Counted from the stretch's first letter, positions 5,408 to 52,256 are shown. The stretch is 64,000 nt of DNA from Candidatus Aenigmatarchaeota archaeon (GCA_043824495.1 JBDRSV010000005.1:1-64000), one strand, 5' to 3'. Translations and numbers: made by a program. Notes: generated from the letters alone by a model not told the origin.

Positions 5408-8400
5408 CTATACTTTTTGTATGAAACTTGGTCTAGGCTCGTATAACATACCCTCTCTCTTCAACTTATCTATAATTTCATCCACTTCTTCTATTCCTTC
5501 TTTCTTGGCCAATTCTTCAATTTCACCAATGGCTATTTCTTTTTTCTTCGTGGATAGTTCATTGATTATTTCAAGAATAGATCTTATCTTGGTTCTTTCA
5601 CTTGAAGAAACTCCACCTTCTGATCTATCTATATCTATTTGTCCTGTTTCTGGATCATAACCAAGTTGCTTCAAAGAATAAGTCATGAGTTTGATTGCTC
5701 TTTCTGCATCTTCTATTCTAACAACAGGACTAAGTTGAATCTTAGCAGAAGCTTCTGAAATTCTTATGAGAGCCTCGAATTGCCTCAAACTTAGAGGAAT
5801 TGCTCCACCGCCTTCTGTAGTTGCTCTCTTTCTAGAACTTACATAAAAGTTCTTGAGCATTTTACCTACTTCTGCGGTTAATTCAGGTTTACATTTATCC
5901 TTTGCGTATGCTATATATTTCCTTATATTGTCTCTGTCTATTGTAGGTGTATTGTCTGTTGCTTCTATGTCTCTTGATTTTAGTATGTGATCTACAACTT
6001 TCTTGTCCATTGTTGTGTCTGGTTTGTCCATTAAAGCGAACTTCAAATCAAACCTAGATAACAGTGTTGGTGAAATTGTAATCTGTTTGCTTATAGCCAT
6101 GTAAGGATCGAATCTTGAGAACTTAGGATTACCTCCTGCTAAAACGGATGTTTGTGCTGGTAATGTTGCAACTATAGAAGCTTTGGCGATTGATACTGAA
6201 TTGTGGCATATTATACCATTTCCTATAAAAATTCCAGTTGGATTCATTGCAACATCATAAACCCACTGTTTACCTCTCTTCAATGATATTGATTTTATCC
6301 TTATCCACTCCACAGGAGCTTCTAGAACAAACCTGAGATTTTCAATTATTCTTTTCTGAGAAAGCATCTTTTCTAGTATATTCTCAGTCACTGTTATAGA
6401 TTTTTTAAATAGTTTCTCGTCTTTCTTTACAGCTTTCCAATACCAAAGATTCTGCTCGCTTATTTTTAATTTCCTTGCAATTTCTGATCTACTTATTCTA
6501 AACTCCTCTCTCAATTTTCTGAATTCTGTGTAATGAATGGGGGACTTTAATTTTTCAAGTGTTTTCTCTATCTTAACTATCCTCGAATCAAAGCTTTTAA
6601 CAATTTTTCTAAGCATTTCTTTGGTAATATTGTTCTTCTTTCGTGTAAGAGTTAACTCATGGCCTACAATTTCATCATAAGAAAGATTCAGTTCTTTCCT
6701 TATTTGTTCCACTAAAGGCACAATATTAGGCACGTGGTTCCATACTGAGGAAACTGTTCTTTTCGTGACAAGTTTTTGAAGTTTATGTTTTCTTCTTCCT
6801 GTAAAGCCTATAAATTTATCAAAATTTTTTATGTTTTCTTTTCCAGAGAGTTGAAGCTTGTAAGCTACATGTTTTCTATTACCTTTCATGCTTTTATCTA
6901 AATATATACCAGAGAAAATTTCAAACCTGAGCAGTAGTTCTCTGATATGTTTTGCTAGATTTTCACTGGTAGTGGAAAATGTTATTGTTCCATAAGGATA
7001 ATTAACAGATCCTTCTGCATCAAAAAGTCCTCTAAGAAGATAAGATATTTCTTCATTTGATGATTTGTTAATCCAGTCAGGGAGGGATTTATTCCATGGT
7101 TCTACAAGAATCTGAGAACCAATAGAATGAATAAAACGATACAATGGTCTTGAAATTAACCTTATCATCTCTAATGAATCCTTCTCTCTTGTTTGAACGT
7201 ACGGGGAGATAGAAAATAATTTTTTAATTAAGTATTTATAGCGATTTAGAATGTCTTGATCATTGTTACTAAAACAGACCCCGTTTTTAATTTTTCTATT
7301 AACCTCAGCATTACCTTCTCCTATAATCAGACCAATCCATTCACATAATTCCTTGCTGCTTCTTGTGGGTAATTTTAGTTTTTTGTGTTTCTTATCTTCA
7401 GGAATTTTTTGTAGTGGAAGAGGCTGAGGTTTTCCATACAATGAAAGTCTTTTTGGAACTGGTATATGATCACCTTTTTTCAAGCCCCTTGCTTTTATAG
7501 GTGTTATGACACCGTTTCTTATTATAAAAACAGGATGATCTTTTGTTATTTTTATTTCTTGTCCTGTATTAAGATTAATTTTATAAATAGAATTCTCTGT
7601 GTGTTTGCCAACAGCTAGAATCTTTGAAGGTTTTATTTGTTTGAAGTCTGAAGATAGTATGTGTATGTTTTTGTCCGATATGATCTTGCTTATATTGTTT
7701 CCTTTCTCCCCCTGGGTTAATTGATCTACAAAATCTCCTATCTGTGTCTTGCTCCCGTCTTCAAAAATAAGTTCGGTGCTTCCGTCATAACATCCTTGTT
7801 CGAGTGCTTCGTGCATAGCTACTTGATCTTCTTGGCTCATCTTCTCGAACTCGTCTATTGCAAGCAACCCCTTGTTTGCTAAAACAATTGCACCAGCTTC
7901 TAAAACCCATCCACCCATGAACTGTTCATCTTTAGTAACTGTCGCCGTAAGTCCCGCAGTAGATGTCCCCTTACCTGATACATACTTACCTCTAGGAACA
8001 ATATCTGGAACTAGTTTAAGCAACTGAGATTTACCTGAAGCAGGATCACCAATAATTAGAAGATGTATATCACCTCTTATTCTTGTACGATCTCTTAGTT
8101 TTCTTGTAACTCCTCCAAAAAGCTGCATTATTATTGCCTCTTTTTCATATTCAAGACCGTACAAAGAAGGAGCTATTGATTGTACTAGTTTCTCATAAAT
8201 TTTAGGGTCTCTTGCAAAAGCTTTGATTTTTTCTTCGTCTTCCTTATTGATATCTAATTTTTCCCACCCTATTTCAGTTGCCTCGAAATTGTTTACATCT
8301 AAGAAAAAATCTAGTTTAACTCCTTGGGCATTTTGTTTTGGTATATCTTTCAAAATACCACAAAGCAGGAGCTTGTTACCAGGTTCTGTTAGTCTTCTAC

Positions 8401-9031
8401 CATCAGGAGATACTAAATCCTCTGTTACTACAACAGTTACTTGAGATGGTCTTTCACCTTCTGTTAATTCAAATGGTTCTTCAATAACCATCCATCTAGT
8501 ATCAATCATTTTCTTTCCAACTTCTTTGAAACCTATTCTATTTCTACATGGTTTTCCGCCTATGACACCTGTGCACAAGAAAGGCTTGGGCATGAAGTTG
8601 CCTCTCCTTTCTATTGTTAGCTTTTCTTCACATTCAGGGCACTCCCATTCAGTTTCCATTATTTCAGGTCTAATTTCAGATGCTTTTCTTACTATACCTT
8701 CAACTGCAAGGAATTTGTTAATATGTCTTGATCTAAGATCTCTGATGCTTGTGAGTTCTGTCAAGTTCTTTACTCTAACTCTAACTGGATTAGGTAAGTC
8801 TATCTGAGTAACAGCGTCTTCTGCTACTTGGAAGAATGTTTTAGGATCAAGCAGAAGCAGCTCAGAAAGTTCAGGACCATGCTTACCAAATTTCTGAATC
8901 CAATCAAAATCAACCTCTAGAGGAGTTCCTGAATTTGATGCTTCTTCAATATCTTTGCTATATCTGTCTCTCAGGAACTCATTGAATCGAAGCGTTAGCT
9001 CGTCCTTTTTCTCTTCAGAAATATAGGCCAT
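5408..9031 (-). CDS. mcm: MCM replicative helicase with intein
   Basis: Zn finger CPEC..C, Walker A GDPASGKSQ, Walker B IDEFEKM, arginine finger LLSRFD and C-terminal winged helix. Confidence 0.97.
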   Translation of the reverse strand: MAYISEEKKDELTLRFNEFLRDRYSKDIEEASNSGTPLEVDFDWIQKFGKHGPELSELLLLDPKTFFQVAEDAVTQIDLPNPVRVRVKNLTELTSIRDLRSRHINKFLAVEGIVRKASEIRPEIMETEWECPECEEKLTIERRGNFMPKPFLCTGVIGGKPCRNRIGFKEVGKKMIDTRWMVIEEPFELTEGERPSQVTVVVTEDLVSPDGRRLTEPGNKLLLCGILKDIPKQNAQGVKLDFFLDVNNFEATEIGWEKLDINKEDEEKIKAFARDPKIYEKLVQSIAPSLYGLEYEKEAIIMQLFGGVTRKLRDRTRIRGDIHLLIIGDPASGKSQLLKLVPDIVPRGKYVSGKGTSTAGLTATVTKDEQFMGGWVLEAGAIVLANKGLLAIDEFEKMSQEDQVAMHEALEQGCYDGSTELIFEDGSKTQIGDFVDQLTQGEKGNNISKIISDKNIHILSSDFKQIKPSKILAVGKHTENSIYKINLNTGQEIKITKDHPVFIIRNGVITPIKARGLKKGDHIPVPKRLSLYGKPQPLPLQKIPEDKKHKKLKLPTRSSKELCEWIGLIIGEGNAEVNRKIKNGVCFSNNDQDILNRYKYLIKKLFSISPYVQTREKDSLEMIRLISRPLYRFIHSIGSQILVEPWNKSLPDWINKSSNEEISYLLRGLFDAEGSVNYPYGTITFSTTSENLAKHIRELLLRFEIFSGIYLDKSMKGNRKHVAYKLQLSGKENIKNFDKFIGFTGRRKHKLQKLVTKRTVSSVWNHVPNIVPLVEQIRKELNLSYDEIVGHELTLTRKKNNITKEMLRKIVKSFDSRIVKIEKTLEKLKSPIHYTEFRKLREEFRISRSEIARKLKISEQNLWYWKAVKKDEKLFKKSITVTENILEKMLSQKRIIENLRFVLEAPVEWIRIKSISLKRGKQWVYDVAMNPTGIFIGNGIICHNSVSIAKASIVATLPAQTSVLAGGNPKFSRFDPYMAISKQITISPTLLSRFDLKFALMDKPDTTMDKKVVDHILKSRDIEATDNTPTIDRDNIRKYIAYAKDKCKPELTAEVGKMLKNFYVSSRKRATTEGGGAIPLSLRQFEALIRISEASAKIQLSPVVRIEDAERAIKLMTYSLKQLGYDPETGQIDIDRSEGGVSSSERTKIRSILEIINELSTKKKEIAIGEIEELAKKEGIEEVDEIIDKLKREGMLYEPRPSFIQKV
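6200..7792 (-). mobile_element. Intein (531 aa) with LAGLIDADG homing endonuclease, within mcm
   Basis: HEALEQG|CYDG...IICHN|SVSIAKA junctions (Cys1, terminal His-Asn, Ser+1); WIGLIIGEG and LLRGLFDAEG LAGLIDADG motifs; internal HTH-like segment ISRSEIARKLKIS. Confidence 0.93.
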
Positions 9032-9075: not shown

Positions 9076-9100
9076 TATCCCTTTAAATTGACAATATAAA
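9076..9100 (-). repeat. Right-end motif copy 2
   Basis: Reverse complement reads TTTATATTGTCAATTTAAAGGGATA; lies upstream of mcm. Confidence 0.9.
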
Positions 9101-9553: not shown

Positions 9554-10417
9554 CTAGCGTTTTAGGAAGACCCACTCCTTGTCGCCGACAATGATCTTGT
9601 CGTTGTGGCTTAAAATGACACTTCCATCACGATCCACAGGGATTCCGTTGACCGTGATACCCGAACTTCCATTCATATTCCTGAAAATCCATTCATCAGC
9701 ATCCCCATCCTTATTGACTCTCTTGAGGATTTGAGCATGGATTCCGCCGTCGTTGAGATCCCTGGTGTCACCAACTCCAATTTCCGAGCCCTTGATGTAG
9801 TAGTCGGTGCGGACGGTGAAGAAGTCATCGCCCTCCTGCATTAGCATCGGATTTATCATGAGGCCCTTGTCCACACGGTCTAGGAACAGCTTCAGATCCG
9901 TGACCAACAGATGACATTTGAGATGTTGTAACATGTCGTAGAGGTCCTCGATTTCTACCCGGCTCATTAAGAGTGTCACTACCCTGTAGATTTCGGAAAA
10001 TGTCACACTGTCCGATACCGCCATCTGAGAAACATCGTCGCGGCTGAGAGGTGTGGGTTCGGGCGTTATGAAAATTGTGTAGTCTCCGAATGAGAGGCAA
10101 GTCTCTTCGCCGCTCCGTACCCATATCCGATTCGAAATGATGTCGTGATTTCCGTTAATCCTCAGGTCAGGTATACAGTGGTCGATGGCTGCCAGACATG
10201 AGCCTGATGGGGTCACGAATATCTTGAACAACGGTGGTTCGATGGCGCTGTTATGATCGCCTCTGGCGGCTTCTTCATCGAGCTTGACATCTTGGTTATG
10301 GATCATTCCATTTCCGCAGCCAATCCAGAGGAACTGCCCCCGACAGAGAGTCCTTTTTTCAGGAACCACATTCTCTCTTTTAAATCCTTTTCGAAGTACT
10401 CCAATTGTAAATATCAT
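9554..10417 (-). CDS. FHA-like domain protein (probably two degenerate FHA-like domains)
   Basis: The C-terminal WIFRNMNGSSGITVNG...LSHNDKIIVGD pattern matches the FHA strand order; there is a similar N-terminal segment; SD GGGAGG. Confidence 0.6.
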   Translation of the reverse strand: MIFTIGVLRKGFKRENVVPEKRTLCRGQFLWIGCGNGMIHNQDVKLDEEAARGDHNSAIEPPLFKIFVTPSGSCLAAIDHCIPDLRINGNHDIISNRIWVRSGEETCLSFGDYTIFITPEPTPLSRDDVSQMAVSDSVTFSEIYRVVTLLMSRVEIEDLYDMLQHLKCHLLVTDLKLFLDRVDKGLMINPMLMQEGDDFFTVRTDYYIKGSEIGVGDTRDLNDGGIHAQILKRVNKDGDADEWIFRNMNGSSGITVNGIPVDRDGSVILSHNDKIIVGDKEWVFLKR

Positions 10418-10475
10418 CTTTACAATTCCTCCCTATGAGATCCCCGATCCGTCGCCGGGGATCTCTGCCATTTCG

Positions 10476-11438
10476 TTAATTTGTCGGGAAACACGTATTC
10501 ATTACTGTGTGAAGCCATCCTCCTCCATAGAGATAGTTTCCCACAAGAGTCAGGCCTCCGATGGCAGGCGGTGTAAGCTTTCTTCTCCACCTAGGATCAT
10601 CGGGGTCCAGAGAGTTCAAGTGGCTCTCTCTGATGGCGTTCATGAGAATTTCTGCGCGGCCAGGAATGAGAGCGAGCCTACTCACGTCGGGAAGATATCT
10701 CTTTCCCGGGCCCATATCGGAGAAAGGAATGTCGGTATCGGCGGAGACTACAAGGTCGTGTTTCCACAAGACCTTGTCGAAGACCACTCCGAGAATACGC
10801 ATGTTTCTGAGAGCATCTGTTATGTCAGTTTCGTCGTGGAGTTCGTGGAAGATATGATCCTGAACTGTTCCTTTAACTGTGTCCGAATCTACATTTCCAC
10901 CGATTCCCCAGCATGCACCAGGATACATTGGAGTTCCACTGCCCCGTCGAGTTAATACAAACCCGTCCGGGCATTTGAGCCATAGTACTGGTGCGAGAGG
11001 ACCTTGGGGTAAAGACATGTTCTCCCGGGTGAATAATTTGCGATACTCGGGTCGTTGCGTCGCCATGACCTCGGAGAACAACATCTTCTCGACATTGATG
11101 GTGGTCGAATTTAGTGGCCAGTTTGTCATCCGGTATTGGATACCGGGATACATAATCGGTGTCCAGGAATCGGTTGTGGTCTTTCTTCCCCAGAGTCCAT
11201 GATGGTGTTCTTCTTCAAAAGGACGGAAGTCCAGAAGAATTTCGCCCTCTGCAGTGAGCGCCTCAAACTTCGCCAGGACCATGCCGTTCCATATGCTGAT
11301 CTCGTAAGGCGTCGCCAATTTGGGATACCTTGTCACATGTTCCTGACTGCCGTCAAACTTCACTATTGATGCAAACGGGACACCTGGTGCCGGCACAGCC
11401 CACCATGTAGTTGTCTGTATTTTCTCGGGTAGTTTCAT
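10476..11438 (-). CDS. Divergent NUDIX-fold protein (E2 cargo)
   Basis: FVLTRRG..MYPG.CWGIGGNVD followed by the degenerate Nudix box HELHDETDI. Confidence 0.55.
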   Translation of the reverse strand: MKLPEKIQTTTWWAVPAPGVPFASIVKFDGSQEHVTRYPKLATPYEISIWNGMVLAKFEALTAEGEILLDFRPFEEEHHHGLWGRKTTTDSWTPIMYPGIQYRMTNWPLNSTTINVEKMLFSEVMATQRPEYRKLFTRENMSLPQGPLAPVLWLKCPDGFVLTRRGSGTPMYPGACWGIGGNVDSDTVKGTVQDHIFHELHDETDITDALRNMRILGVVFDKVLWKHDLVVSADTDIPFSDMGPGKRYLPDVSRLALIPGRAEILMNAIRESHLNSLDPDDPRWRRKLTPPAIGGLTLVGNYLYGGGWLHTVMNTCFPTN

Positions 11439-11461
11439 TCTCGATCTGCCTTTCTATGATT

Positions 11462-11731
11462 TCACTTCGCTGGCGTTTCGGATTGACTGCCACCGGGCTT
11501 AGGAGCGCCATTTGTTGCGATGCTCGCCGGCGATGGGAATGTTCCCTCATGTCCTCGTCTGAGAGCCGCGTCCAGAATTTCCAGGTGCTCTGACGATCTG
11601 TTTTTTGCGATCCATTCACGACATTGCGGGATCGCCGAAGCCTCGACCTGCGATAGAATGATGTTGATCAGTTCACTTGCAGGGAGAGCCCCCTTATCCA
11701 GGAACTCTTCGAATGTCAGTGTCTTCAGCAT
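11462..11731 (-). CDS. Small protein related to the C-terminal helical domain of the neighbouring FHA paralogs
   Basis: FEEFLDKG..L..I.SQV..C aligns by eye with FESLAKG..L..I.SQV..C of 12564..13133; same GGAGGGCAT(T/G)GCAATG start context. Confidence 0.6.
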   Translation of the reverse strand: MLKTLTFEEFLDKGALPASELINIILSQVEASAIPQCREWIAKNRSSEHLEILDAALRRGHEGTFPSPASIATNGAPKPGGSQSETPAK

Positions 11732-11766
11732 TGCAATGCCCTCCAGAAATGTGTGGGGTGGTCGGA

Positions 11767-12459
11767 CTAGTATTGGGCCGGAGTTTCTATTGTTAGAAGT
11801 GTGTTGTACATTTCATCTGGTAGCTTGACATACATCAGGTCCTGAACTCTTTCTCTTAGGAACCTGACCTTAGGAGTAAGGTCAGTTCCCTTGTCCGACC
11901 AGAAGTCGTCTGGATCGAGACAGTTTATTCCGTTATTGATGATGAATTTCATGGACCTGAAGAAAGCGTACCGGCTGTTATCTTCGATGAGATTTGCCAG
12001 GATGACTTCAGATTTCCAGTCATCTGCCGGAGACAGGACGGAAGTAGAATCCTGATTTTCGTATTGCCGGTTGAGTTTATAGCATGTTTCGCTGAGAGTC
12101 CAAATGCTTTTCTTGAACTTTTTGGCGGTTCCTCGAATAACCAGTTCCACAACCTTCAGTGTGGTCTTCGACCCTTCTGACATGCCTTGTGGCATGACGT
12201 CTTTGAATTCTTCTTCGAACTGGTTCTTGTAATATCCGAGGCATTTGCTGAGCTTCGTTCTTGAGCTGTCCGGAAGCAATTCCATCAGGTCGTCGAATGT
12301 TTCCAGTACCTCGTCGGTGCGAACATCAACGGTCTGGGCATATGCCTTTTCCGTACTCTGTTCCCATGCTGGATTCGGCTTGTCTCCGTCGCCACACGAG
12401 ATCATGGTCGCGAAGATGATCACGAACAAGACGACCGAGATAGTTCTCTTTGTTTTCAT
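11767..12459 (-). CDS. Hypothetical lipoprotein-like protein (E2 cargo)
   Basis: MKTKR, hydrophobic core and MISC lipobox-like Cys; SD GGAGG. Confidence 0.7.
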   Translation of the reverse strand: MKTKRTISVVLFVIIFATMISCGDGDKPNPAWEQSTEKAYAQTVDVRTDEVLETFDDLMELLPDSSRTKLSKCLGYYKNQFEEEFKDVMPQGMSEGSKTTLKVVELVIRGTAKKFKKSIWTLSETCYKLNRQYENQDSTSVLSPADDWKSEVILANLIEDNSRYAFFRSMKFIINNGINCLDPDDFWSDKGTDLTPKVRFLRERVQDLMYVKLPDEMYNTLLTIETPAQY

Positions 12460-12563
12460 GTTGCTAACCTCCGTAAACGTGATACAATTCAGTTAATTTC
12501 GGTTTCCGACTATCCGAGGTGCATCGGACTTGCACTCGGATTTCTGCATGGAACCGCCACGCG

Positions 12564-13133
12564 TCATTCAGGTCGGGATTTGGTGATCTCTTTCAGGATC
12601 AGTTCCGTCATTTTGACTTTCCTGGCATGGCTTCTGATTATGGCAACTCGCTCGTAGATCGGGATTATCTTCCGTGCAGTGTCAGGATGATACTTGCAGA
12701 GAAATCCGATGCAAGCAATAACATCATCCTGCAACACTTGTGAGAAAATCATGAGAGCGAGACGTTCTCCGGAAACTGATCCCTTTGCCAGAGATTCGAA
12801 CTCGTCCTTGTCGATGAGGGCACGGAACTCGAATTTCAGTTTCCCGGTTGTCACGACATCGCCGTTTAGTATTGTACAATCGGCCGAGCCGCATGGCTTG
12901 CCATTGATGAATGTCAAGTTTCCCGATGTTTCGTCGTGGATGCATAACTCGTCGTTGGTCAGTTTGATACTGAAATGTGTATCCTTGAGTCCGAATTTTC
13001 CACCTTCTGGTATCGACCATTCGGATTCTGTGGATGTCCCAAAACGTACCGATGTATCCGGAACTAGATGTAAAGTGGCCTTTCCTTCTTTCGCTCCGGA
13101 CCAGCGTACTTCTAGAAAGCTCCCCATTGCCAT
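12564..13133 (-). CDS. Degenerate FHA-domain protein (start revised to 13133)
   Basis: SD GGAGGGC precedes ATG GCA ATG at 13133, matching the paralog start MAMG; FHA pattern VRFG...THFSI...IHDE...TFING...GDVVTTG. Confidence 0.72.
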   Translation of the reverse strand: MAMGSFLEVRWSGAKEGKATLHLVPDTSVRFGTSTESEWSIPEGGKFGLKDTHFSIKLTNDELCIHDETSGNLTFINGKPCGSADCTILNGDVVTTGKLKFEFRALIDKDEFESLAKGSVSGERLALMIFSQVLQDDVIACIGFLCKYHPDTARKIIPIYERVAIIRSHARKVKMTELILKEITKSRPE

Positions 13134-13263
13134 GCCCTCCTTCGGTGGTATGTGTAGTGTTTCATTAACTTTTGTTTTAGTTTCCGGCGAACCCGTAACA
13201 TTGGAATTGCCCGGGTTTTCTACTGGAACCATCAGCGTCATTCAGGCCGGTTCATGTTACCGG

Positions 13264-13932
13264 TCAGTCAGATCCCAGAGTGGATAGATCGTCGTCACCT
13301 ATGTCTCTTGCTAACGCTCTCTCCGATTTAATTGGGGTCGGAGTACGATCCGCCGCTTTTTGGATAGCGAGATCTGTCTTATTGATAATGTCGGCACGCG
13401 TGATCGCGTTCCCTTCGTGTAAAATGGAGGATGCACGTTCTACGATTCGAATCATCCATTCCCGTGCAGCTTGTGGCCTCTTCTCACACAAGACATCAAG
13501 ACAACTGGGGAAGTCTTGTGTTCTCACTCTTGTGAGAAGTCTGAGAACCAGTTCTTCGTCACTGGCTCGGCTGGCTAACATGGCAGTGAATTCTTCCGTA
13601 TCGTAGAGAACATCGAACCAGATTCTGAGTTCTCCGATGCGAATCACGCTTATATTGTAGACGTACGTCCCACCGGACTGGACTTTTTCCTCATCCACGA
13701 AAGTGCCCGCGTTGGTTCCCAGATCATGGATCCTTAGACACTCGCCGTCATTGGCCATTGTGATCGAGAAGTGTCTGCCTTTGAAGTCTTCCTCATCAGC
13801 CGGAATCAGGAAATCGTCCCCTTCGGATTCCCCGAACACAAGTGTTTGATTCCGATCAATTGGAATCATGTTCTCGTCTGCTGATGATGTCCCCTCTGTC
13901 CATGTTACATTTAGATAACGTCCCATTGCCAT
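13264..13932 (-). CDS. Degenerate FHA-domain protein, paralog of 12564..13133
   Basis: LVFG...RHFSI...IHDLGTNAGTFVD...IRIG pattern; shares the MAMG start and the C-terminal helical domain. Confidence 0.78.
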   Translation of the reverse strand: MAMGRYLNVTWTEGTSSADENMIPIDRNQTLVFGESEGDDFLIPADEEDFKGRHFSITMANDGECLRIHDLGTNAGTFVDEEKVQSGGTYVYNISVIRIGELRIWFDVLYDTEEFTAMLASRASDEELVLRLLTRVRTQDFPSCLDVLCEKRPQAAREWMIRIVERASSILHEGNAITRADIINKTDLAIQKAADRTPTPIKSERALARDIGDDDLSTLGSD

Positions 13933-19024: not shown

Positions 19025-21109
19025 TCACGAAGTAACTAAGAATTGAGACATTGCGTCTTCTATTAAGCCACCGAACATTGTGCTCACACCAAACATGACT
19101 AGGAAGTATAACACCAAACCAACTATTATCATTTTTCCTATATTGTTCCATTGAGCAACTGGGTTGTCTCCTTTTGATATCTTTGTTAAGAACATTCCGA
19201 GTATCATGATAACTTGGATCAAGTATATACCAATTATGAGTTGGAATAATGCTGGTGATGTGGAAGGTGCTCCAACAATCAGTAGAGAAATATCAATACC
19301 TAGAGAATCCTCGAATCCAGCATTTTGCATCAGCTGGCCCATTGTTACTAGTACTTGTATTATGATATCAGCCATTGCAACTATCATACCAGTGATTATG
19401 GGTGTCAAGAAATATGCCTGAAACTTCATTGATGATGTTGTTTCAGTGAGTAGCTCTCTTATGTATTCTTGTGTTTCTCTTATGTTTTTCAAATACCTAG
19501 ATATTCTAAGCATACTGTCTGCTGCATAAGTAACGCCTTTCTTAGATGTGTCTATTACAGCATACATGATATTGTTGATTATTTTTGATGGGTAGTATTG
19601 AAGAGCTCCCCATTTTTTATGGAATAGTGAGTCTTCGAATGTCATACCAAGAGTCTTAATATTAGCTAATGATCTTTTGAATAAACCAGCTATCTTCAAA
19701 TCTTTTACATCATCTATAGCTCTCTCAATAGCCACTTCTGTAGGAGTTCCTCCTGAAATCTTATTTCCTAATTTGAACAACGCTAATTCGAATTCGCTTT
19801 CTATACTCTCTATTTCTTCTTGTATTCTCTGTTTCTGGTAATTTGACAACAACAAGAAAGCTGATATAGCAAAACCTAACCCCATTATGAAAAATGATGA
19901 CATTAACATTGTAAATTGTGGATTTGTATCTAGAACAGGAATTGTTCCTGCTCCTGTTGGGGGGAATAATAATTCAGGTGTGGTCCCAAAATATATTATT
20001 GGAAGTATCCAGAAACCGATTATTATCAACAATGAAATTGGCCATGCTGGTATAGATCTACCTTTGATAGAGAAGCTGTGGTTCTTAGGTACATCTGGAT
20101 GTTTGGATATATCTATCTGCGATAGAGTTACAGGTCTCTTGTTTAATGTATTCAGAATAAACCACGTGATGATAATAGGTAATGCTATGTCATATCCTAT
20201 TATGAAATGTATTGGTGATACTAAATCTGACAAGAACACTGCGGCCATTGGAGCCATTATTGTTCCCATTATAGGTAACACAATACCCATCATGTGGATA
20301 ACCATGACAGGCATTAATAAATCCTGTGCATAGTGCTTCATTCTTGTCTTTGTTCCGGTTAAAATAACTTCTAGAGCTTGATCAAGTTCTTTTTTTGCTC
20401 TGTCTGGTGTCTGAGATTGAGAGTCTCTTATCAGTCTCAAAGCCTCTGCAAATTCCTCATTCTCAAATTTCCATCTTATTATATAGTCATCAAGAGCGTC
20501 GTTGGCTGAATAATATTTTCTCATCTCTATATCCCAGATAAGCTTTCTCAAATCCCATGCCAATGCTCCAGATACATTTGAAGCTGCGAATCTTAGAGCA
20601 CGCTCCATATTAGGAGAAACTCTCATGGACACAACCATGTATAGTATAGCAAGAACTACTTGAGAGCTTGCTTGAATACGTAGAGTTTTTACTCTACTCG
20701 ATGGGTATTTGTAGAAATAATATGCAACAAGGAAACCCATTGCTGCTATAACAAGACCTATCATTACAGAAACAATTCCTGTGATTATGAATGTTACACC
20801 TAGGAGAATGAAGAATATTATTGTTGTGGCCATCAGACCCATTATTTCCGCTGGTGTTATGTCCATCTCTGTAAAGAGGATAGCAGATTCTAGTTTTTCT
20901 TTAGATCCTCTATCTGGATCTATTTTAGCCATACTACCTACAGCTTTCACAAGAACTTCATACCAGCCAGGTTTCTCTTCGTCCCCTTTCTTGTATAATC
21001 TATACTCTCTTGTTGTGACTACTGGTTCTTCTTGATAATAAGATCTTTCGGCTGGACGATAAGAAGGTGGCCTTTGTATCTTCCTCTTTTTCTTCCCAAA
21101 CAAACCCAT
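19025..21109 (-). CDS. TadC/ArlJ-like type II secretion system F-domain membrane platform protein
   Basis: Two cytoplasmic domains separated by TM clusters; ALFKLGNKISGGTPTEVAIE and ERALRFAA patterns typical of archaeal pilus platform proteins. Confidence 0.75.
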   Translation of the reverse strand: MGLFGKKKRKIQRPPSYRPAERSYYQEEPVVTTREYRLYKKGDEEKPGWYEVLVKAVGSMAKIDPDRGSKEKLESAILFTEMDITPAEIMGLMATTIIFFILLGVTFIITGIVSVMIGLVIAAMGFLVAYYFYKYPSSRVKTLRIQASSQVVLAILYMVVSMRVSPNMERALRFAASNVSGALAWDLRKLIWDIEMRKYYSANDALDDYIIRWKFENEEFAEALRLIRDSQSQTPDRAKKELDQALEVILTGTKTRMKHYAQDLLMPVMVIHMMGIVLPIMGTIMAPMAAVFLSDLVSPIHFIIGYDIALPIIITWFILNTLNKRPVTLSQIDISKHPDVPKNHSFSIKGRSIPAWPISLLIIIGFWILPIIYFGTTPELLFPPTGAGTIPVLDTNPQFTMLMSSFFIMGLGFAISAFLLLSNYQKQRIQEEIESIESEFELALFKLGNKISGGTPTEVAIERAIDDVKDLKIAGLFKRSLANIKTLGMTFEDSLFHKKWGALQYYPSKIINNIMYAVIDTSKKGVTYAADSMLRISRYLKNIRETQEYIRELLTETTSSMKFQAYFLTPIITGMIVAMADIIIQVLVTMGQLMQNAGFEDSLGIDISLLIVGAPSTSPALFQLIIGIYLIQVIMILGMFLTKISKGDNPVAQWNNIGKMIIVGLVLYFLVMFGVSTMFGGLIEDAMSQFLVTS

Positions 21110-21476
21110 GATTAATAATTGGCTTGGCTCCTAATAAAAATCGGAGTTTTCTGGTGTTTTTGGGCATATCTTTAAAAATCTGTCAAGGAAAAGCTGATCA
21201 ACAGCATAAAGGTGACTATCATATTCCACTCTCAAAAAATCTACAATTTGTATCAGATAAACAAAGCGTTTAATCTGAAAATGTCTTCATGGACCCATAA
21301 ATCAACGCACACAAAACACGAAATAACACAAAGTGCATTGTTAGCTTAAGCTATGGAGAATGAGAAGCCTGAGAGTGATTTTTTCTGTCTTCTGTAAAGA
21401 AATTACCAGACTTTTGTCTTAGACGAGAGTCTTTCGCCAATAGAAAAAAATGATTCATTGATATGGGGGGTGAACA

Positions 21477-22307
21477 ATGATATCGTGTAAATCAAAACAG
21501 GTGGATTCAACACGGCTTGACGCTAGGCCGAAAAAGCGACGAATGCCAGTTCAGGTCTCGCGTGCCTGGGATGCGTATTTCAGCTCCGGCGACCCTGGTG
21601 TTCGTCAGAACCTTCTCAATCATTACCTGCCGCTCGTATGCAATGTGGCGGGTAGGATGGCTCTAGGCTTTCCCAAAGCTGTTGAGCTGAATGATTTGAT
21701 TTCCACAGGCACGATCGGCTTGTGCCAGTCCTTAAAGAACTTCGATCCTAAACGAGGCGTCAAGTTCGAAACCTTTGCGGTTCCCCGAATCCGTGGTGCA
21801 ATTCTCGACGAGATGCGCAGCTTGGATTGGGTGCCGCGTTCCACACGCTCGAAAGCACGTAAGATTGATCGAGTCACAACTCAGATCGAACAACAACAGG
21901 GACGTGTGTCAATGCATAATGAACTCGCTGTCCTTCTGAAGATCCCGCTGGACGATCTGCTAGTGGTGCTGACAGATATTTCGGCATCAAGGCTTATGTC
22001 CTTGGATGAATTGGTATATCGAGAGGAGGACAATAGGCAGGTTCCGAGAGTCGAGACACTCGAACTTCCTGTGAGAAGAGATGCCTTGAGAGAGGTCGAA
22101 CGCAGAGAGCTAAAGGTATTCCTCATTAACGCCATTTCTACTCTCAACGAGCAAGAGACACATGTCATTGGCTTATACTACTACGATGAGCTTACCATTC
22201 GTGAGATTGGCGAACTCATGAATCTCTCGGAATCCCGAATCTCGCAGGTTCACACTAGGTCTGTGGAAAAGTTGCGAAGAATGGTGCGCGATAGATTCGG
22301 ATACTGA
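21477..22307 (+). CDS. fliA: Bacterial RNA polymerase sigma-28 factor, FliA/WhiG family
   Basis: NDLISTGTIGL..FDPKRGVKFETFAVPRIRGAILDEMRSLDWVPRS (region 2) and LYYYDELTIREIGELMNLSESRISQVH (region 4). Confidence 0.95.
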   Translation: MISCKSKQVDSTRLDARPKKRRMPVQVSRAWDAYFSSGDPGVRQNLLNHYLPLVCNVAGRMALGFPKAVELNDLISTGTIGLCQSLKNFDPKRGVKFETFAVPRIRGAILDEMRSLDWVPRSTRSKARKIDRVTTQIEQQQGRVSMHNELAVLLKIPLDDLLVVLTDISASRLMSLDELVYREEDNRQVPRVETLELPVRRDALREVERRELKVFLINAISTLNEQETHVIGLYYYDELTIREIGELMNLSESRISQVHTRSVEKLRRMVRDRFGY

Positions 22308-22397
22308 ACAACCAACTGTAAATAACGACGCTCATGCCGGGTTTTGTCCGGGCGGAGAAAGAAAATACAAATGAGAACGAATGGATAAGGAGGGCAA

Positions 22398-22574
22398 ATG
22401 CTCCTATGTCAGGAGTGTCACCAAAAACGGGGATGTTATTGGGGTATTCACCCACACACTACCAATGGGTCTTGTGGTTGTTGTGGTACGCAAACAGCTT
22501 GCGTCGAATGTAATACCCTAGAAACATCTTCACGTCCGATCTCTATGGAAGCCACCGAGAATTTCATCGGCTAA
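22398..22574 (+). CDS. Cys-rich micro-protein, 58 aa (not in ORF track)
   Basis: SD AAGGAGG; MLLCQECHQKRGCYWGIHPHTTNGSCGCCGTQTACVECN... Confidence 0.65.
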   Translation: MLLCQECHQKRGCYWGIHPHTTNGSCGCCGTQTACVECNTLETSSRPISMEATENFIG

Positions 22575-22622
22575 GAAATACCAAGCTCGAGAATCATGTG
22601 TGTCCCATAACACACTTGGTTC

Positions 22623-22647
22623 TTTATATTGTCTAATTAGAGGGATA
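22623..22647 (+). repeat. Right-end motif copy 3
   Basis: TTTATATTGTCTAATTAGAGGGATA, ending 3 bp before the ATG at 22651. Confidence 0.9.
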
Positions 22648-22650
22648 TGA

Positions 22651-23403
22651 ATGAAAGAAATAAAAAACTTACTATCTAAGTATAAAAGATCTGATATGGC
22701 AACTGAAGGATATAAAAGAGTGGTTTTGGGTGCAGGAACTATTGAACCTCATCATCTTCTTGTTGTTTATTCTCTTTTCGAACCCGGCAGTGAAGTACAA
22801 GCAGTTGATCATAAAGGACGACTTTTAGTAAAGAGAGGCAAAAGATCTCATTATAAACTACTTACAACCGATTCTGGTCTCCTGGTTGCGACAAGTGAAG
22901 ATATACCACTACCAAATGAAGAGCCTTTAGCTTCGAGTTATACAGATGCACATGTAGGAAGTACAACACCTGATGCTATTGATAGGATCATGAGTGATTG
23001 GTTAAAATATTTAGCAGAAACATTTGGAAATCAATATCAAACAGCTCTTATAGCTGATAATCTTAGTATGTTTTCTTTAGGACGTTCTGTATACAAACCT
23101 GATGGAGATAATTCTATCGTTGTTAATACTTCTCAATATAGCAATAAGAAACCAGTCAGTACATTGAGATTGCATTCAGTTGATGGTATTCAAGATGATA
23201 TATTTGATACAGGCGGATGCAAAAATCCTCTTGATGTTATGAATAAACTATTTGAAGAGGAGCAATCCACCTTCGCTGCTGTTGCTGCTTTTGATGGATC
23301 TGTGGAACCTGGAGCAGAAATGAATAGAGGAGAACCGCGACATAGAATAATACCTCCTGGTAGCGGAGAATGGCAGTTACATATAAGAAATAGACACAAG
23401 TAA
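22651..23403 (+). CDS. Hypothetical protein
   Basis: 250-aa ORF with host-like composition; only a weak resemblance (LLVATSE) to Ntn-hydrolase folds. Confidence 0.65.
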   Translation: MKEIKNLLSKYKRSDMATEGYKRVVLGAGTIEPHHLLVVYSLFEPGSEVQAVDHKGRLLVKRGKRSHYKLLTTDSGLLVATSEDIPLPNEEPLASSYTDAHVGSTTPDAIDRIMSDWLKYLAETFGNQYQTALIADNLSMFSLGRSVYKPDGDNSIVVNTSQYSNKKPVSTLRLHSVDGIQDDIFDTGGCKNPLDVMNKLFEEEQSTFAAVAAFDGSVEPGAEMNRGEPRHRIIPPGSGEWQLHIRNRHK

Positions 23404-38665: not shown

Positions 38666-40735
38666 ATGAAAATCGCTTTAATTACCCTCGTTTTGACTAT
38701 GATCTTAGTTTTAGGTTTATCTCAAACAGTTCTAGCACAAGTCAATGTAGGAGATTTACCTGCTAAAGGCAATTCTGATGCTCCTATTACAATAGTAGAG
38801 TTCTCAGATTTTCAATGTTCATTCTGTGCAAGATTTACATCACAAACTCTTCTAGAAATACAAACTAAATATATAGACACCGGTAAAGTCAAATTCTATT
38901 TCAGAGACTTTCCTTTAAGTTTCCATCAGCAAGCAAAGCCAGCTGCTTTAGCAGCAAGATGTGCAGATGATCAAGGTAAGTTCTGGGAATTTCATGACTT
39001 AATTTTCGAAAATCAACAAGACCTAAGTGAAGCAACATACAAACAATGGGCATCTGATCTCGAATTAAATACTGTAGAGTTCAATTCATGTTTCGATTCA
39101 AATAAATACAGCGCTGAAATTGACGCTGATTTTTCAGCAGGTCAAGCAGTGGGTGTAAGCGGTACACCATCATTCTTTATTAACGGGCACAAAGTTGTAG
39201 GAGCTCAACCATTTGCAGCATTTGAAAATGTAATAGAACAACTTTTAGATGGAACTTTAGAACCAGTTGATCCTACTGATATACCAGAACCTACTATTCC
39301 AGAAACGCAACCAGTACCACCATTACCTGAAATTGTTGATGTTGATGTTGGAAGCTTACCAGTAAAAGGTGCTTCAAATGCTCCAGTAACAATTATAGAA
39401 TTCTCTGATTTCGAATGTCCATTCTGTGGAAGATTCACATCACAAACTCTTTCAATGATTGAATCTGAATATGTAGACACAGGAAAGGTAAAATTCTACT
39501 ACAGAGATTTCCCATTGAGTTTTCATCAACAAGCAATGCCGGCAGCTATTGCTGCAAGATGTGCAAATGAGCAAGGAGAGTTCTGGGCATTTCATGATTT
39601 AAATTACGAAAACCAACAGAATCTTGGTGAATCAGTATACAAACAATGGGCATCTAATCTTGGTTTAAACATAGCTCAATTCAATTCATGCTTTGATTCA
39701 GAAAAATATGAAACAGCTGTTCAAGCAGACTTTGCAGCAGGTCAGGCAGCAGGTGTAAGTGGAACGCCATCATTCTTTATTGGAAACAGTCAGGACGGAT
39801 ACCAAAAATTGGTTGGAGCTCAATCATTTGCAGCATTCAAAACAGTTATAGATCAGCAACTTGGTGTAGAACCAGATCCTTATCCTGATACACCGGGAAC
39901 AGAAGATATGCAACCAGAACCAGTTAAAGGAAATCCAAACGCTCCAGTAACAATCGTAGAATTCTCTGATTTCGAATGTCCATTCTGTGCAAGATTCTTT
40001 ACAAGTACTCATGGACAAATTGTTTCAGAATATGTAGATGCTGGTCATGCAAAAATAACATTTAGTAATTTCCCTCTAAGTTTCCATCAGAATGCACAGT
40101 CAGCTGCAGAGGCTTCTGAGTGTGCTCATGAACAAGGTAAATTCTGGGAATTCCATGATCTTGTATTTGAAAATCAAAATTCTCTAGATGTAACACAATA
40201 TAAACAGTGGGCATCACAACTAGGGTTGAATACAGCAAGATTTAATTCTTGTGTAGATACACACAAATATGCACCTGAAGTGAGACATGATTTTGCTCAA
40301 GGACAAGCAAAAGGAGTTCGTGGAACACCATCATTCTTCATCAATGGTGAGAACCTTGTAGGTGCTCAACCATTCTCAGCATTCAAAGCTGTGATAGATA
40401 AATACTTGGATACAGATGAACCAGAAACACAGCCAGATGATATAGACACAGAGATCTTAGACATTGTATTCAAGCTTGAGAGCTTGGGAATCAAAGTAGA
40501 TAAGTTAGCAACACTATCAGGATCACTAGCTTCATATTACTCAAACACAGGTGATTTCGCAAGAGCAACTCACTGGCAAGAAGTCGCAAACATGTTCGAT
40601 AATGTAATGGATTTCATGGATGAGATAAAGAGCGAATTAAACAGAACAAGAGATCTATTTGATGCAAGAAACAGCATCTCTGAATTAACAAGCTTCATAG
40701 GAAGTATAATTAACAAGATATTAGGATTTGTATGA
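38666..40735 (+). CDS. Secreted protein with three tandem DsbA/thioredoxin-like domains
   Basis: Signal peptide; three EFSDF(Q/E)C(S/P)FC sites, each followed by GTPSFF cis-Pro motifs; helical C-terminal domain. Confidence 0.92.
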   Translation: MKIALITLVLTMILVLGLSQTVLAQVNVGDLPAKGNSDAPITIVEFSDFQCSFCARFTSQTLLEIQTKYIDTGKVKFYFRDFPLSFHQQAKPAALAARCADDQGKFWEFHDLIFENQQDLSEATYKQWASDLELNTVEFNSCFDSNKYSAEIDADFSAGQAVGVSGTPSFFINGHKVVGAQPFAAFENVIEQLLDGTLEPVDPTDIPEPTIPETQPVPPLPEIVDVDVGSLPVKGASNAPVTIIEFSDFECPFCGRFTSQTLSMIESEYVDTGKVKFYYRDFPLSFHQQAMPAAIAARCANEQGEFWAFHDLNYENQQNLGESVYKQWASNLGLNIAQFNSCFDSEKYETAVQADFAAGQAAGVSGTPSFFIGNSQDGYQKLVGAQSFAAFKTVIDQQLGVEPDPYPDTPGTEDMQPEPVKGNPNAPVTIVEFSDFECPFCARFFTSTHGQIVSEYVDAGHAKITFSNFPLSFHQNAQSAAEASECAHEQGKFWEFHDLVFENQNSLDVTQYKQWASQLGLNTARFNSCVDTHKYAPEVRHDFAQGQAKGVRGTPSFFINGENLVGAQPFSAFKAVIDKYLDTDEPETQPDDIDTEILDIVFKLESLGIKVDKLATLSGSLASYYSNTGDFARATHWQEVANMFDNVMDFMDEIKSELNRTRDLFDARNSISELTSFIGSIINKILGFV

Positions 40736-49489: not shown

Positions 49490-49571
49490 GCCGGGATGGC
49501 AGAATGGTTAATGCGCACGACTGGAAATCGTGTGCCCTTTGGGCTTGGGGGTTCGAATCCCTCTCCCGGCG
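49490..49571 (+). tRNA. tRNA-Ser (anticodon GGA)
   Basis: GCCGGGA/TCCCGGC acceptor stem, CACGA-CTGGAAA-TCGTG anticodon arm, long variable arm GCCC-TTT-GGGC, T-arm and G73. Confidence 0.95.
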
Positions 49572-49713
49572 TTTCTTTATTTAATAAGGTCACAGAAATA
49601 AACAAAAGATCTAAATAATGTATTTTAATGTGCCCTTACAGAAAATGTATGCATGGGCACCAAATTAAACAAAAATAGATAATTTTATATATTATTGTGC
49701 CCATATATAAAAT

Positions 49714-52128: not shown

Positions 52129-52256
52129 AAAACATTATTTCTTTAGAATCATAAATATCTAATGTTCCATTTGGGCTTGGGGGTTCAAATCCCTCCTCCG
52201 GCGTCTTTTCTATATCAGACCTAGTTATATAAAATTTACTATGTTTAATCTTTTAC

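Follow-up and report, generated by a model that had tools for sequence, protein, structure and literature searches.

A FliA/WhiG sigma factor gene of Zixibacteria ancestry on a small cassette in the chromosome of an Aenigmatarchaeota archaeon

The chromosome of a Candidatus Aenigmatarchaeota archaeon, one of the small, symbiont-type DPANN archaea, contains an intact bacterial sigma-28 (FliA/WhiG) gene of Zixibacteria ancestry, carried as the sole recognisable cargo of a cassette of ~1.4 kb (21219-22647). Archaeal transcription initiation relies on TBP and TFB, and the archaeal RNA polymerase does not use sigma factors. Complete sigma factors in Archaea were reportedly described by Rinke and colleagues in 2013. 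Whether the gene is a recently captured passenger, and not an initiation factor, we regard as close to an even call. An earlier note on this DNA had considered recent neutral capture, repurposing as a regulator, and an effector acting on a bacterial partner. Neutral capture is ranked first here, the gene being young in its host by GC3 and accompanied neither by functional partners nor by an excess of sigma-28 sites. Nothing in our results speaks directly for the other two ideas, and an indirect hint in their favour comes from two host-adapted sigma-family genes on the same contig.

Results and discussion

The host genome and the flanks of the sigma gene

The window, that is, the whole stretch of DNA analysed here, makes up the initial 64 kb of a contig of 153 kb (GCA_043824495.1, JBDRSV010000005.1). 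The source genome is a metagenome-assembled bin of 1.01 Mb in 29 contigs, 80% complete and with a contamination of 0.2%, and at this completeness absences from it are provisional. Among archaeal backbone genes, the window has that of MCM, whose product contains an intein as well as an archaeal winged helix, and that of a GluRS of archaeal type; the contig also carries EF-1alpha and the split RNA polymerase subunits A'/A''. The coordinates of the features discussed below are collected in Table 1.

The earlier note had placed the sigma gene between a pilus-platform-like gene and a host-like ORF, and both flanks were found as claimed. The left one has a host-like composition and orthologues in all five family relatives compared (49-67% identity), and in two family relatives an A24 prepilin peptidase adjoins the orthologue; its product is a candidate archaeal pilus platform. 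The right-flank ORF found no match in five family relatives when used as a query. The host genome contains two TBP genes. Neither the Pfam model nor a tblastn search with the TFB of a same-genus relative detected TFB (TFIIB cyclin domain) in it, although 14 of 15 relatives possess the gene; the missing gene is most likely an assembly gap at 80% completeness. Its absence is worth noting given the three sigma-family genes in the same genome.

Two further observations concern other parts of the window. The 3' half of a tRNA-Ser(GGA) gene (49531-49577) is repeated with 85% identity 2.6 kb downstream (52163-52209), a pattern typically left behind when an element integrates into a tRNA gene, and the GC content of the DNA enclosed by the repeats is host-like or lower. 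An ORF of 689 aa on the plus strand (38666-40735) consists of three tandem copies of ~200 aa, with a DNA period of 561-600 nt and 67-77% identity.

Table 1. Features of the cassette and its surroundings (positions in the window, except for the last row, which is given in positions of the whole contig)
Feature	Position	Strand	Basis or remark
MCM helicase gene with LAGLIDADG homing-endonuclease intein, 1207 aa in total	5408-9031	-	
T2SSF/PilC-like membrane protein, 694 aa, left flank of the sigma gene	19025-21109	-	Weak PF00482 match, E 9e-4
Left-end box TCATATTCCAC	21219-21229	+	Shared by some cassettes only
AT-rich left arm between box and GC-rich cargo, GC 0.34-0.36	21230-21400	+	
Shine-Dalgarno-like GGGGGGTG, 4 nt 5' of the ATG	21465-21472	+	Sequence
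FliA/WhiG-family sigma factor gene, intact, 276 aa, GC 0.50, GC3 0.54	21477-22307	+	Pfam, NCBIfam and PDB matches
Cys-rich mini-ORF, 58 aa, with ribosome-binding site AAGGAGGG	22398-22574	+	ORF call, sequence
Terminator-like hairpin, cargo-specific, abutting the junction motif	22598-22615	+	Terminator scan
Junction motif TTTATATTGTCTAATTAGAGGGATA, 25 nt, right cassette end or docking site	22623-22647	+	Repeated motif
Right-flank ORF, 250 aa, host-like composition, without family	22651-23403	+	ORF call, Pfam/NCBIfam search
Two adjacent intact ECF-like sigma genes, 231 and 211 aa (Sigma70_r2 and r4_2)	G000:C5:105033-106458	-	~41 kb past the window end

Identity of the sigma gene

The description of the gene in the earlier note, as an intact full-length bacterial sigma-28 gene in an archaeal chromosome, is upheld by the family models and by the archaeal markers on the contig. 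The frame has no internal stop. Region 1.1 and a non-conserved insert are absent and the other regions are complete, with Pfam Sigma70_r2 (E 1.3e-16, residues 46-118), r3 (residues 126-178) and r4 (E 1.3e-15, residues 219-267) all above their gathering scores. The NCBIfam model TIGR02479 (FliA_WhiG) gives 233.9 bits against a cut-off of 189.6 and the FliA model PRK06986 gives 217.2 against 201, while the WhiG equivalog model, at 267.8, stays under its cut-off of 343. The best relatives among solved structures are WhiG (6PFV/6PFJ, E 1e-62), with an alignment to 6PFV that runs end to end over residues 23-272, followed by E. coli FliA (6PMI) and Aquifex sigma-28 (1RP3).

In a comparison with 119 close homologues, 107 of the 121 near-invariant residues (conserved in at least 95% of them) are kept identical in the archaeal protein. 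The other 14 are altered, mostly conservatively, and eight of these lie in region 4, among the 34 conserved columns of its helix-turn-helix; in bacterial members 0-5 near-invariant residues are altered.

Zixibacteria ancestry and the donor

The best 120 homologues of the protein among 5.8 billion proteins are 56-72% identical to it, and every named one is from the Zixibacteria. The closest named relatives, for example MBI5867637.1 and GAB4317134.1, stand at ~70% identity; no closer archaeal copy of FliA was found among these 5.8 billion proteins, and the DNA of the archaeal gene is at most 68% identical to that of any known bacterium. In an ingroup-only maximum-likelihood tree (LG+C20) the gene falls in a Zixibacteria tip clade with an ultrafast bootstrap of 98-100, at the end of a branch of 1.11 changes per site, ~10 times as long as those of its neighbours (median 0.10). 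An AU test gave p = 0.09 for a position outside the tip clade, and the precise position of the gene in the tree is not secure. The ingroup-only tree replaced a tree with distant outgroups, FliA genes of 30-38% identity from Chlamydiota, Bacillota and Actinomycetota that came from a search of genome contigs, because long-branch attraction to these outgroups was suspected. The gene lay in the tip clade in that first tree as well, and a constrained tree in which it stood outside all Zixibacteria was 14.9 log units better, a preference that we attribute to long-branch attraction to the distant outgroups. The earlier note had called for a FliA phylogeny and had expected the gene to identify its donor. 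With all named close homologues from the Zixibacteria and the ingroup tree placing the gene inside their FliA clade, this is borne out for the ultimate donor lineage.

The context of the gene in the donor lineage was examined in eight loci with five of the closest homologues (69-70% identical). In these loci fliA follows flhG in flagellar export operons, and where the locus extends far enough the order is fliR-flhB-flhA-flhF-flhG-fliA. On the 3' side there is a gene of 105-111 aa in seven of the eight loci and an ORF cut by the contig end in the eighth, and the GC content is 0.61-0.62 in the five loci measured. The archaeal island holds no remnant of flhG or of the gene downstream of the Zixibacteria fliA. 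The archaeal protein thus resembles Zixibacteria FliA in its regions 2-4, in its ~70% identity and in its length, which includes the N-terminal extension of the 280-aa forms; it differs in its archaeal host, in its position outside a flagellar operon, in its GC content (0.50 as against 0.61), in its ~10 times longer branch, and in a host genome without core polymerase, anti-sigma factor or regulon. We suggest that a FliA/WhiG gene of Zixibacterial ancestry was cut out of a flagellar operon. It might have reached the host directly from another archaeon, because the composition of the island equals that of related archaea.

Architecture of the cassette and its junction motif

The earlier note had also assigned the gene to a cassette, E3, which agrees with a GC-rich block at ~21400-22620 (GC 0.46-0.54, compared with 0.35 in the host), closed off by a hairpin and a repeated 25-nt motif. 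The left end is less uniform among the cassettes. The consensus TCAT[GA][CT]TCCAC occurs 12 times in the genome. Six of these copies share the orientation of an island and lie beyond its GC-rich edge, at a distance of 68-236 nt. The sigma cassette has only the 11-nt box, and four other cassettes share an extended similarity of ~45 nt. A universal left-end motif was rejected as a candidate, the TCATRYTCCAC box being common to only six islands. Upstream of the sigma gene we were unable to assign a promoter of the bacterial type; there is one weak sigma-70-like match in this region, fewer than in shuffled sequences. Between the sigma gene and the right end lies the Cys-rich ORF of 58 aa, for which we found neither a Pfam family nor, in a search of 5.8 billion proteins, any homologue.

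At the right end the 45 nt before the motif fold with -16.6 kcal/mol (z = -5.0). At least 13 of 18 motif copies have a hairpin of similar strength in front of them, and these hairpins are unrelated in sequence. Within the motif there is a TATA-like TTTATATT, and 3 nt separate the motif from the start codon of the next gene; it may double as the promoter of this host gene. With up to five mismatches there are 19 copies of the motif in the genome, on four contigs, and 18 of them have a GC-rich 5' side (0.43-0.56) and a host-like 3' side. Another copy in the window (9076-9100) lies 45 nt upstream of the MCM start codon. The island ORFs of at least 150 aa all point toward the motif, except for one shadow ORF in a larger gene on the plus strand. 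A 21-nt core of the motif was found in 20 of 41 family genomes, and a control with the reversed pattern gave one match in total. In the same-genus genome a copy of the motif, likewise preceded by a hairpin, occupies the syntenic position, with the T2SSF-like gene on one side and AsnA-Lrp-A24 on the other, and the cargo at this site consists of PurO-like and AICARFT-like genes, not of a sigma gene. The syntenic site is one docking site with variable cargo.

The motif and hairpin at the syntenic site of an independent assembly are a strong argument against mis-assembly. A bacterial fragment might have been misjoined into the archaeal contig during assembly or binning, since the genome is metagenome-assembled in 29 contigs, the composition of the block is sharply unlike that of its flanks, and no independent contig with the sigma gene was found (JGI metagenome contigs contained no exact match to a 47-nt query). 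We consider such an artefact extremely improbable, because the block of 1.2 kb is flanked on both sides by archaeal DNA within a 153-kb contig that encodes MCM, EF-1alpha and RNA polymerase, and because it ends in the same hairpin-plus-motif junction as ~17 other islands, a junction that recurs at the syntenic site of a relative from a separate assembly, and 20 of 41 family genomes have it. The 68% DNA identity of the gene to the nearest known bacterium, the loss of the operon neighbours and the contamination estimate of 0.2% argue in the same direction.

Our reading is that the sigma gene travelled as the only recognisable cargo of its ~1.4-kb cassette, one of a family of ~18 insertions in the host, in which co-directional genes and a terminator-like hairpin of their own are fused to a conserved archaeal motif of 25 nt. 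The hairpin-plus-motif pattern points to site-specific docking and not to random integration.

Archaeal integrons are platforms for cross-domain gene capture (Ghaly et al. 2022, PMC9668308), and the cassettes described here are like integron cassettes in several ways. The cargo is co-directional and looks promoterless, a 3' hairpin is joined to a conserved site, an orthologous site can hold different cargo, and genes move between domains. Unlike integron cassettes, they stand one per site at dispersed places in the chromosome and form no array behind a single attI; their hairpins have no visible attC-like consensus, the conserved part being the adjacent 25-nt motif, and this motif resembles the archaeal promoter of the next host gene. 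No integron integrase was identified among the seven tyrosine-recombinase matches in the host genome, and the combination of IntI, attI and array was not found.

One of these seven matches adjoins a motif copy. It is a gene of the Phage_integrase type on another contig (G000:C24:46410-47342, plus strand) that ends 58 nt from the motif copy at C24:47400-47424 (minus strand), and it converges on this copy with the genes of that cassette. We take this tyrosine recombinase as a lead to the enzyme that docks the cassettes.

Cargo of other cassettes

The earlier note had read the sigma gene as a sign that the cassettes import bacterial DNA. This stands for the sigma cargo, with its Zixibacteria ancestry, and not for the cassettes in general, because the other cargo tested gave no clear bacterial signal and composition is not proof. 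The lipoprotein of cassette E1 has five distant relatives only, the nearest named one from a 'Candidatus Nanoarchaeia archaeon', and the junction motif is absent from the contig of this relative. A 320-aa protein of cassette E2 found only matches of 26-27%, in two family relatives. As to composition, the orthologues of the T2SSF-like gene in family relatives have a GC3 of 0.53-0.84, the same range as the islands; composition alone is therefore no proof of bacterial origin. Because the native genes of relatives have such values and the host has a GC3 of 0.27, the host species has undergone a strong AT shift.

Two other islands may be mentioned. In the 5.4-kb cassette E2 (9554-13932, minus strand) three FHA-domain cargo proteins stand beside lipoprotein-like and other proteins, and all of them point toward the motif at 9076-9100. 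A GC-rich island of 6.2 kb on another contig (G000:C24:108717-114850) has hardly any long ORFs and contains, besides one gene of 624 aa, only fragments of 77-124 aa, which suggests that some of the captured cargo is decaying.

Selection, composition and age

Compared with the closest bacterial genes the sigma gene has a pS of 0.76-0.82 and a dN of 0.27-0.30. A dN/dS ratio against these homologues was attempted and found incomputable, synonymous sites being saturated. Among themselves the bacterial sister genes have a dN of 0.03-0.05 and a dS of 0.8-0.9. The changes in the archaeal protein affect 12% of the columns conserved at 95% or more, 27% of intermediate columns and 51% of variable ones. 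In substitution-only neutral simulations from a sister gene, the frame was still open in 0.3% of runs at the observed protein divergence. Because conserved columns were spared and neutral runs rarely keep the frame open, the divergence must have accrued under purifying selection.

The GC3 of the sigma gene, 0.54, is close to that of the islands (0.55 +/- 0.07) and is five standard deviations from the host mean (0.27 +/- 0.05). Such an unadapted GC3 implies a residence in the host that was brief relative to the divergence. The proposal of a recent capture thus stands in part: the gene is recent in the host genome, but its saturated synonymous sites and ~10 times longer branch show that it is not a recent copy from any sampled bacterium. 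A search of 300 phylum genomes, of which 34 belong to the family and one to the same genus, found no orthologue. It seems likely that the sigma cassette entered after the host species split from the sampled same-genus relative, and that most of the divergence of the gene from known Zixibacteria had by then accrued under purifying selection, the codon composition staying unadapted. Weak sigma-family matches (24-30% identity to FliA) were found in five of the 300 phylum genomes, all five of the same class. One of them (G003:C1:122718-123347) lies inside an ORF of 842 aa, in a genome that is 96% complete in seven contigs.

Functional partners in the host

Sigma factors of the FliA/WhiG family work with a bacterial core RNA polymerase, and none was found in the host genome. 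The search of the 80% complete assembly yielded no bacterial alpha-CTD, bacterial-type beta', FlgM, flagellin or FlhA, and the matches to the rpoC model are the split archaeal A'/A'', below the cut-off. Nor does the host provide the gene with a flagellar or chemotaxis context, a regulon or an anti-sigma factor, whereas the Zixibacteria relatives do sit in flagellar operons. The earlier note had proposed a genome scan for TAAA-N15-GCCGATAA. When sites of the form TAAA-N14-16-GCCGATAA were counted, there were 22 with at most one mismatch, compared with 18-35 in shuffled sequence, and 287 with at most two mismatches, compared with 387-445, so the scan gave no enrichment over shuffles. Nothing supports initiation of the sigma-28 type in the host cell. 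From the lack of bacterial core RNA polymerase, anti-sigma factor, flagellar genes and sigma-28 promoters we infer a passenger without a role in initiation. The protein, if made, would not initiate transcription, and the gene is perhaps best seen as a passenger that arrived recently, is probably neutral and has so far escaped decay.

Two ECF-like sigma genes on the same contig

The contig carries two further genes of the sigma family (Table 1), downstream of EF-1alpha and of an Ocnus-family gene. With a GC3 of 0.23-0.25 they are host-like. The gene of 211 aa, the one of the two that was used as a query, has its best matches in Zixibacteria, at no more than 49% identity; save for one weak match, it was not found in 40 family relatives. 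Full compositional adaptation together with open frames implies that selection has kept both ECF-like genes, and sigma-family genes can therefore persist in this lineage. Such persistence makes domestication of the FliA gene a real rival to neutral capture.

According to this alternative, the gene, or its cassette, has long been in archaea and was selected there as a DNA-binding or polymerase-associated regulator that is no longer a bacterial initiation factor. The long branch and the 14 altered near-invariant residues could then reflect a long and partly relaxed residence in archaea and not an unsampled bacterial donor. It is in keeping with domestication that an open frame and 107 of 121 conserved columns have survived on a branch ~10 times as long as its neighbours', and that the excess changes cluster in the helix-turn-helix of region 4 (8 of 34 conserved columns); these conserved-position changes are, on the other hand, mostly conservative, which is what ordinary sigma function maintained in a bacterium would lead one to expect. 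Similarly, there are the two ECF-like genes of host composition beside EF-1alpha, one with its best matches in Zixibacteria, the weak sigma-family matches in five other genomes of the class, and the wide distribution of sigma-70-family genes, without anti-sigma factors, in DPANN archaea (PMC8204110). Against this are set the lack of an orthologue in 300 phylum genomes, the same-genus genome included, the lack of a closer archaeal copy among 5.8 billion proteins, and the sigma-28 site scan, in which no target motif is enriched. Above all, a GC3 of 0.54, five standard deviations off the host mean, excludes a long residence in the host genome itself. We think domestication unlikely on balance, if still the most serious competitor of a recently captured passenger.

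The affinity to Zixibacteria also bears on the effector idea of the earlier note. The archaeon would live on or with a Zixibacterium, and the captured sigma factor would interfere with the RNA polymerase or the motility programme of this partner. Of the three sigma-family genes, two were used as queries, FliA and the ECF-like one of 211 aa, and both have their closest named relatives in Zixibacteria; that one is of unadapted and the other of host-like composition suggests repeated contact with this group. The regions for binding core enzyme and promoter are retained and would still suit a bacterial polymerase. Nevertheless, the N-terminus of the sigma protein has no hydrophobic stretch for a signal peptide, no delivery system is linked to the gene, one sigma gene among ~70 cargo genes is not clearly above chance, and the idea is based on taxonomic affinity only. 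We therefore judge it very improbable.

A broader interpretation may be offered from one fresh FliA gene and two old, host-adapted ECF-like genes: the lineage would repeatedly take sigma factors from Zixibacteria by way of hairpin-and-motif docking and would keep them because they are used. We regard this as a long shot, and prefer to see the FliA gene as a recently captured passenger.

Conclusions

The finding has a precedent, although the earlier note implied that it had none. Sigma-70-family genes of DPANN archaea (fam00359), prevalent in Woesearchaeota, have been published with mis-binning excluded; they come without anti-sigma factors, and no mechanism was given for them (Castelle et al. 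2021, PMC8204110). The gene described here resembles them in lying on a contig with archaeal markers (MCM, GluRS, EF-1alpha, A'/A''), without an anti-sigma factor and beside TBP. It is set apart from them, as they are described, by its FliA/WhiG type, its traceable Zixibacteria ancestry, its presence in one genome among those searched and its position on a defined cassette.

Sigma factors in DPANN archaea are thus a known and unsolved oddity, to which our analysis adds a case of the sigma-28 type with a bacterial source phylum that can be named. The act of capture is itself open to study here, in a cassette with one gene, a junction motif conserved in the family and an orthologous site with other cargo. 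With a new, unadapted sigma gene and two host-like ones on a single contig, the question of whether such genes are retained because they function becomes directly testable. The repeated affinity to Zixibacteria also provides a concrete candidate for an organism in physical contact with the archaeon. If sigma factors have indeed been captured repeatedly and kept for their use, they could serve either as regulators that act alongside the archaeal polymerase or as a means of interfering with that of a bacterial partner, and if the latter is true, a DPANN archaeon would depend on a bacterium.
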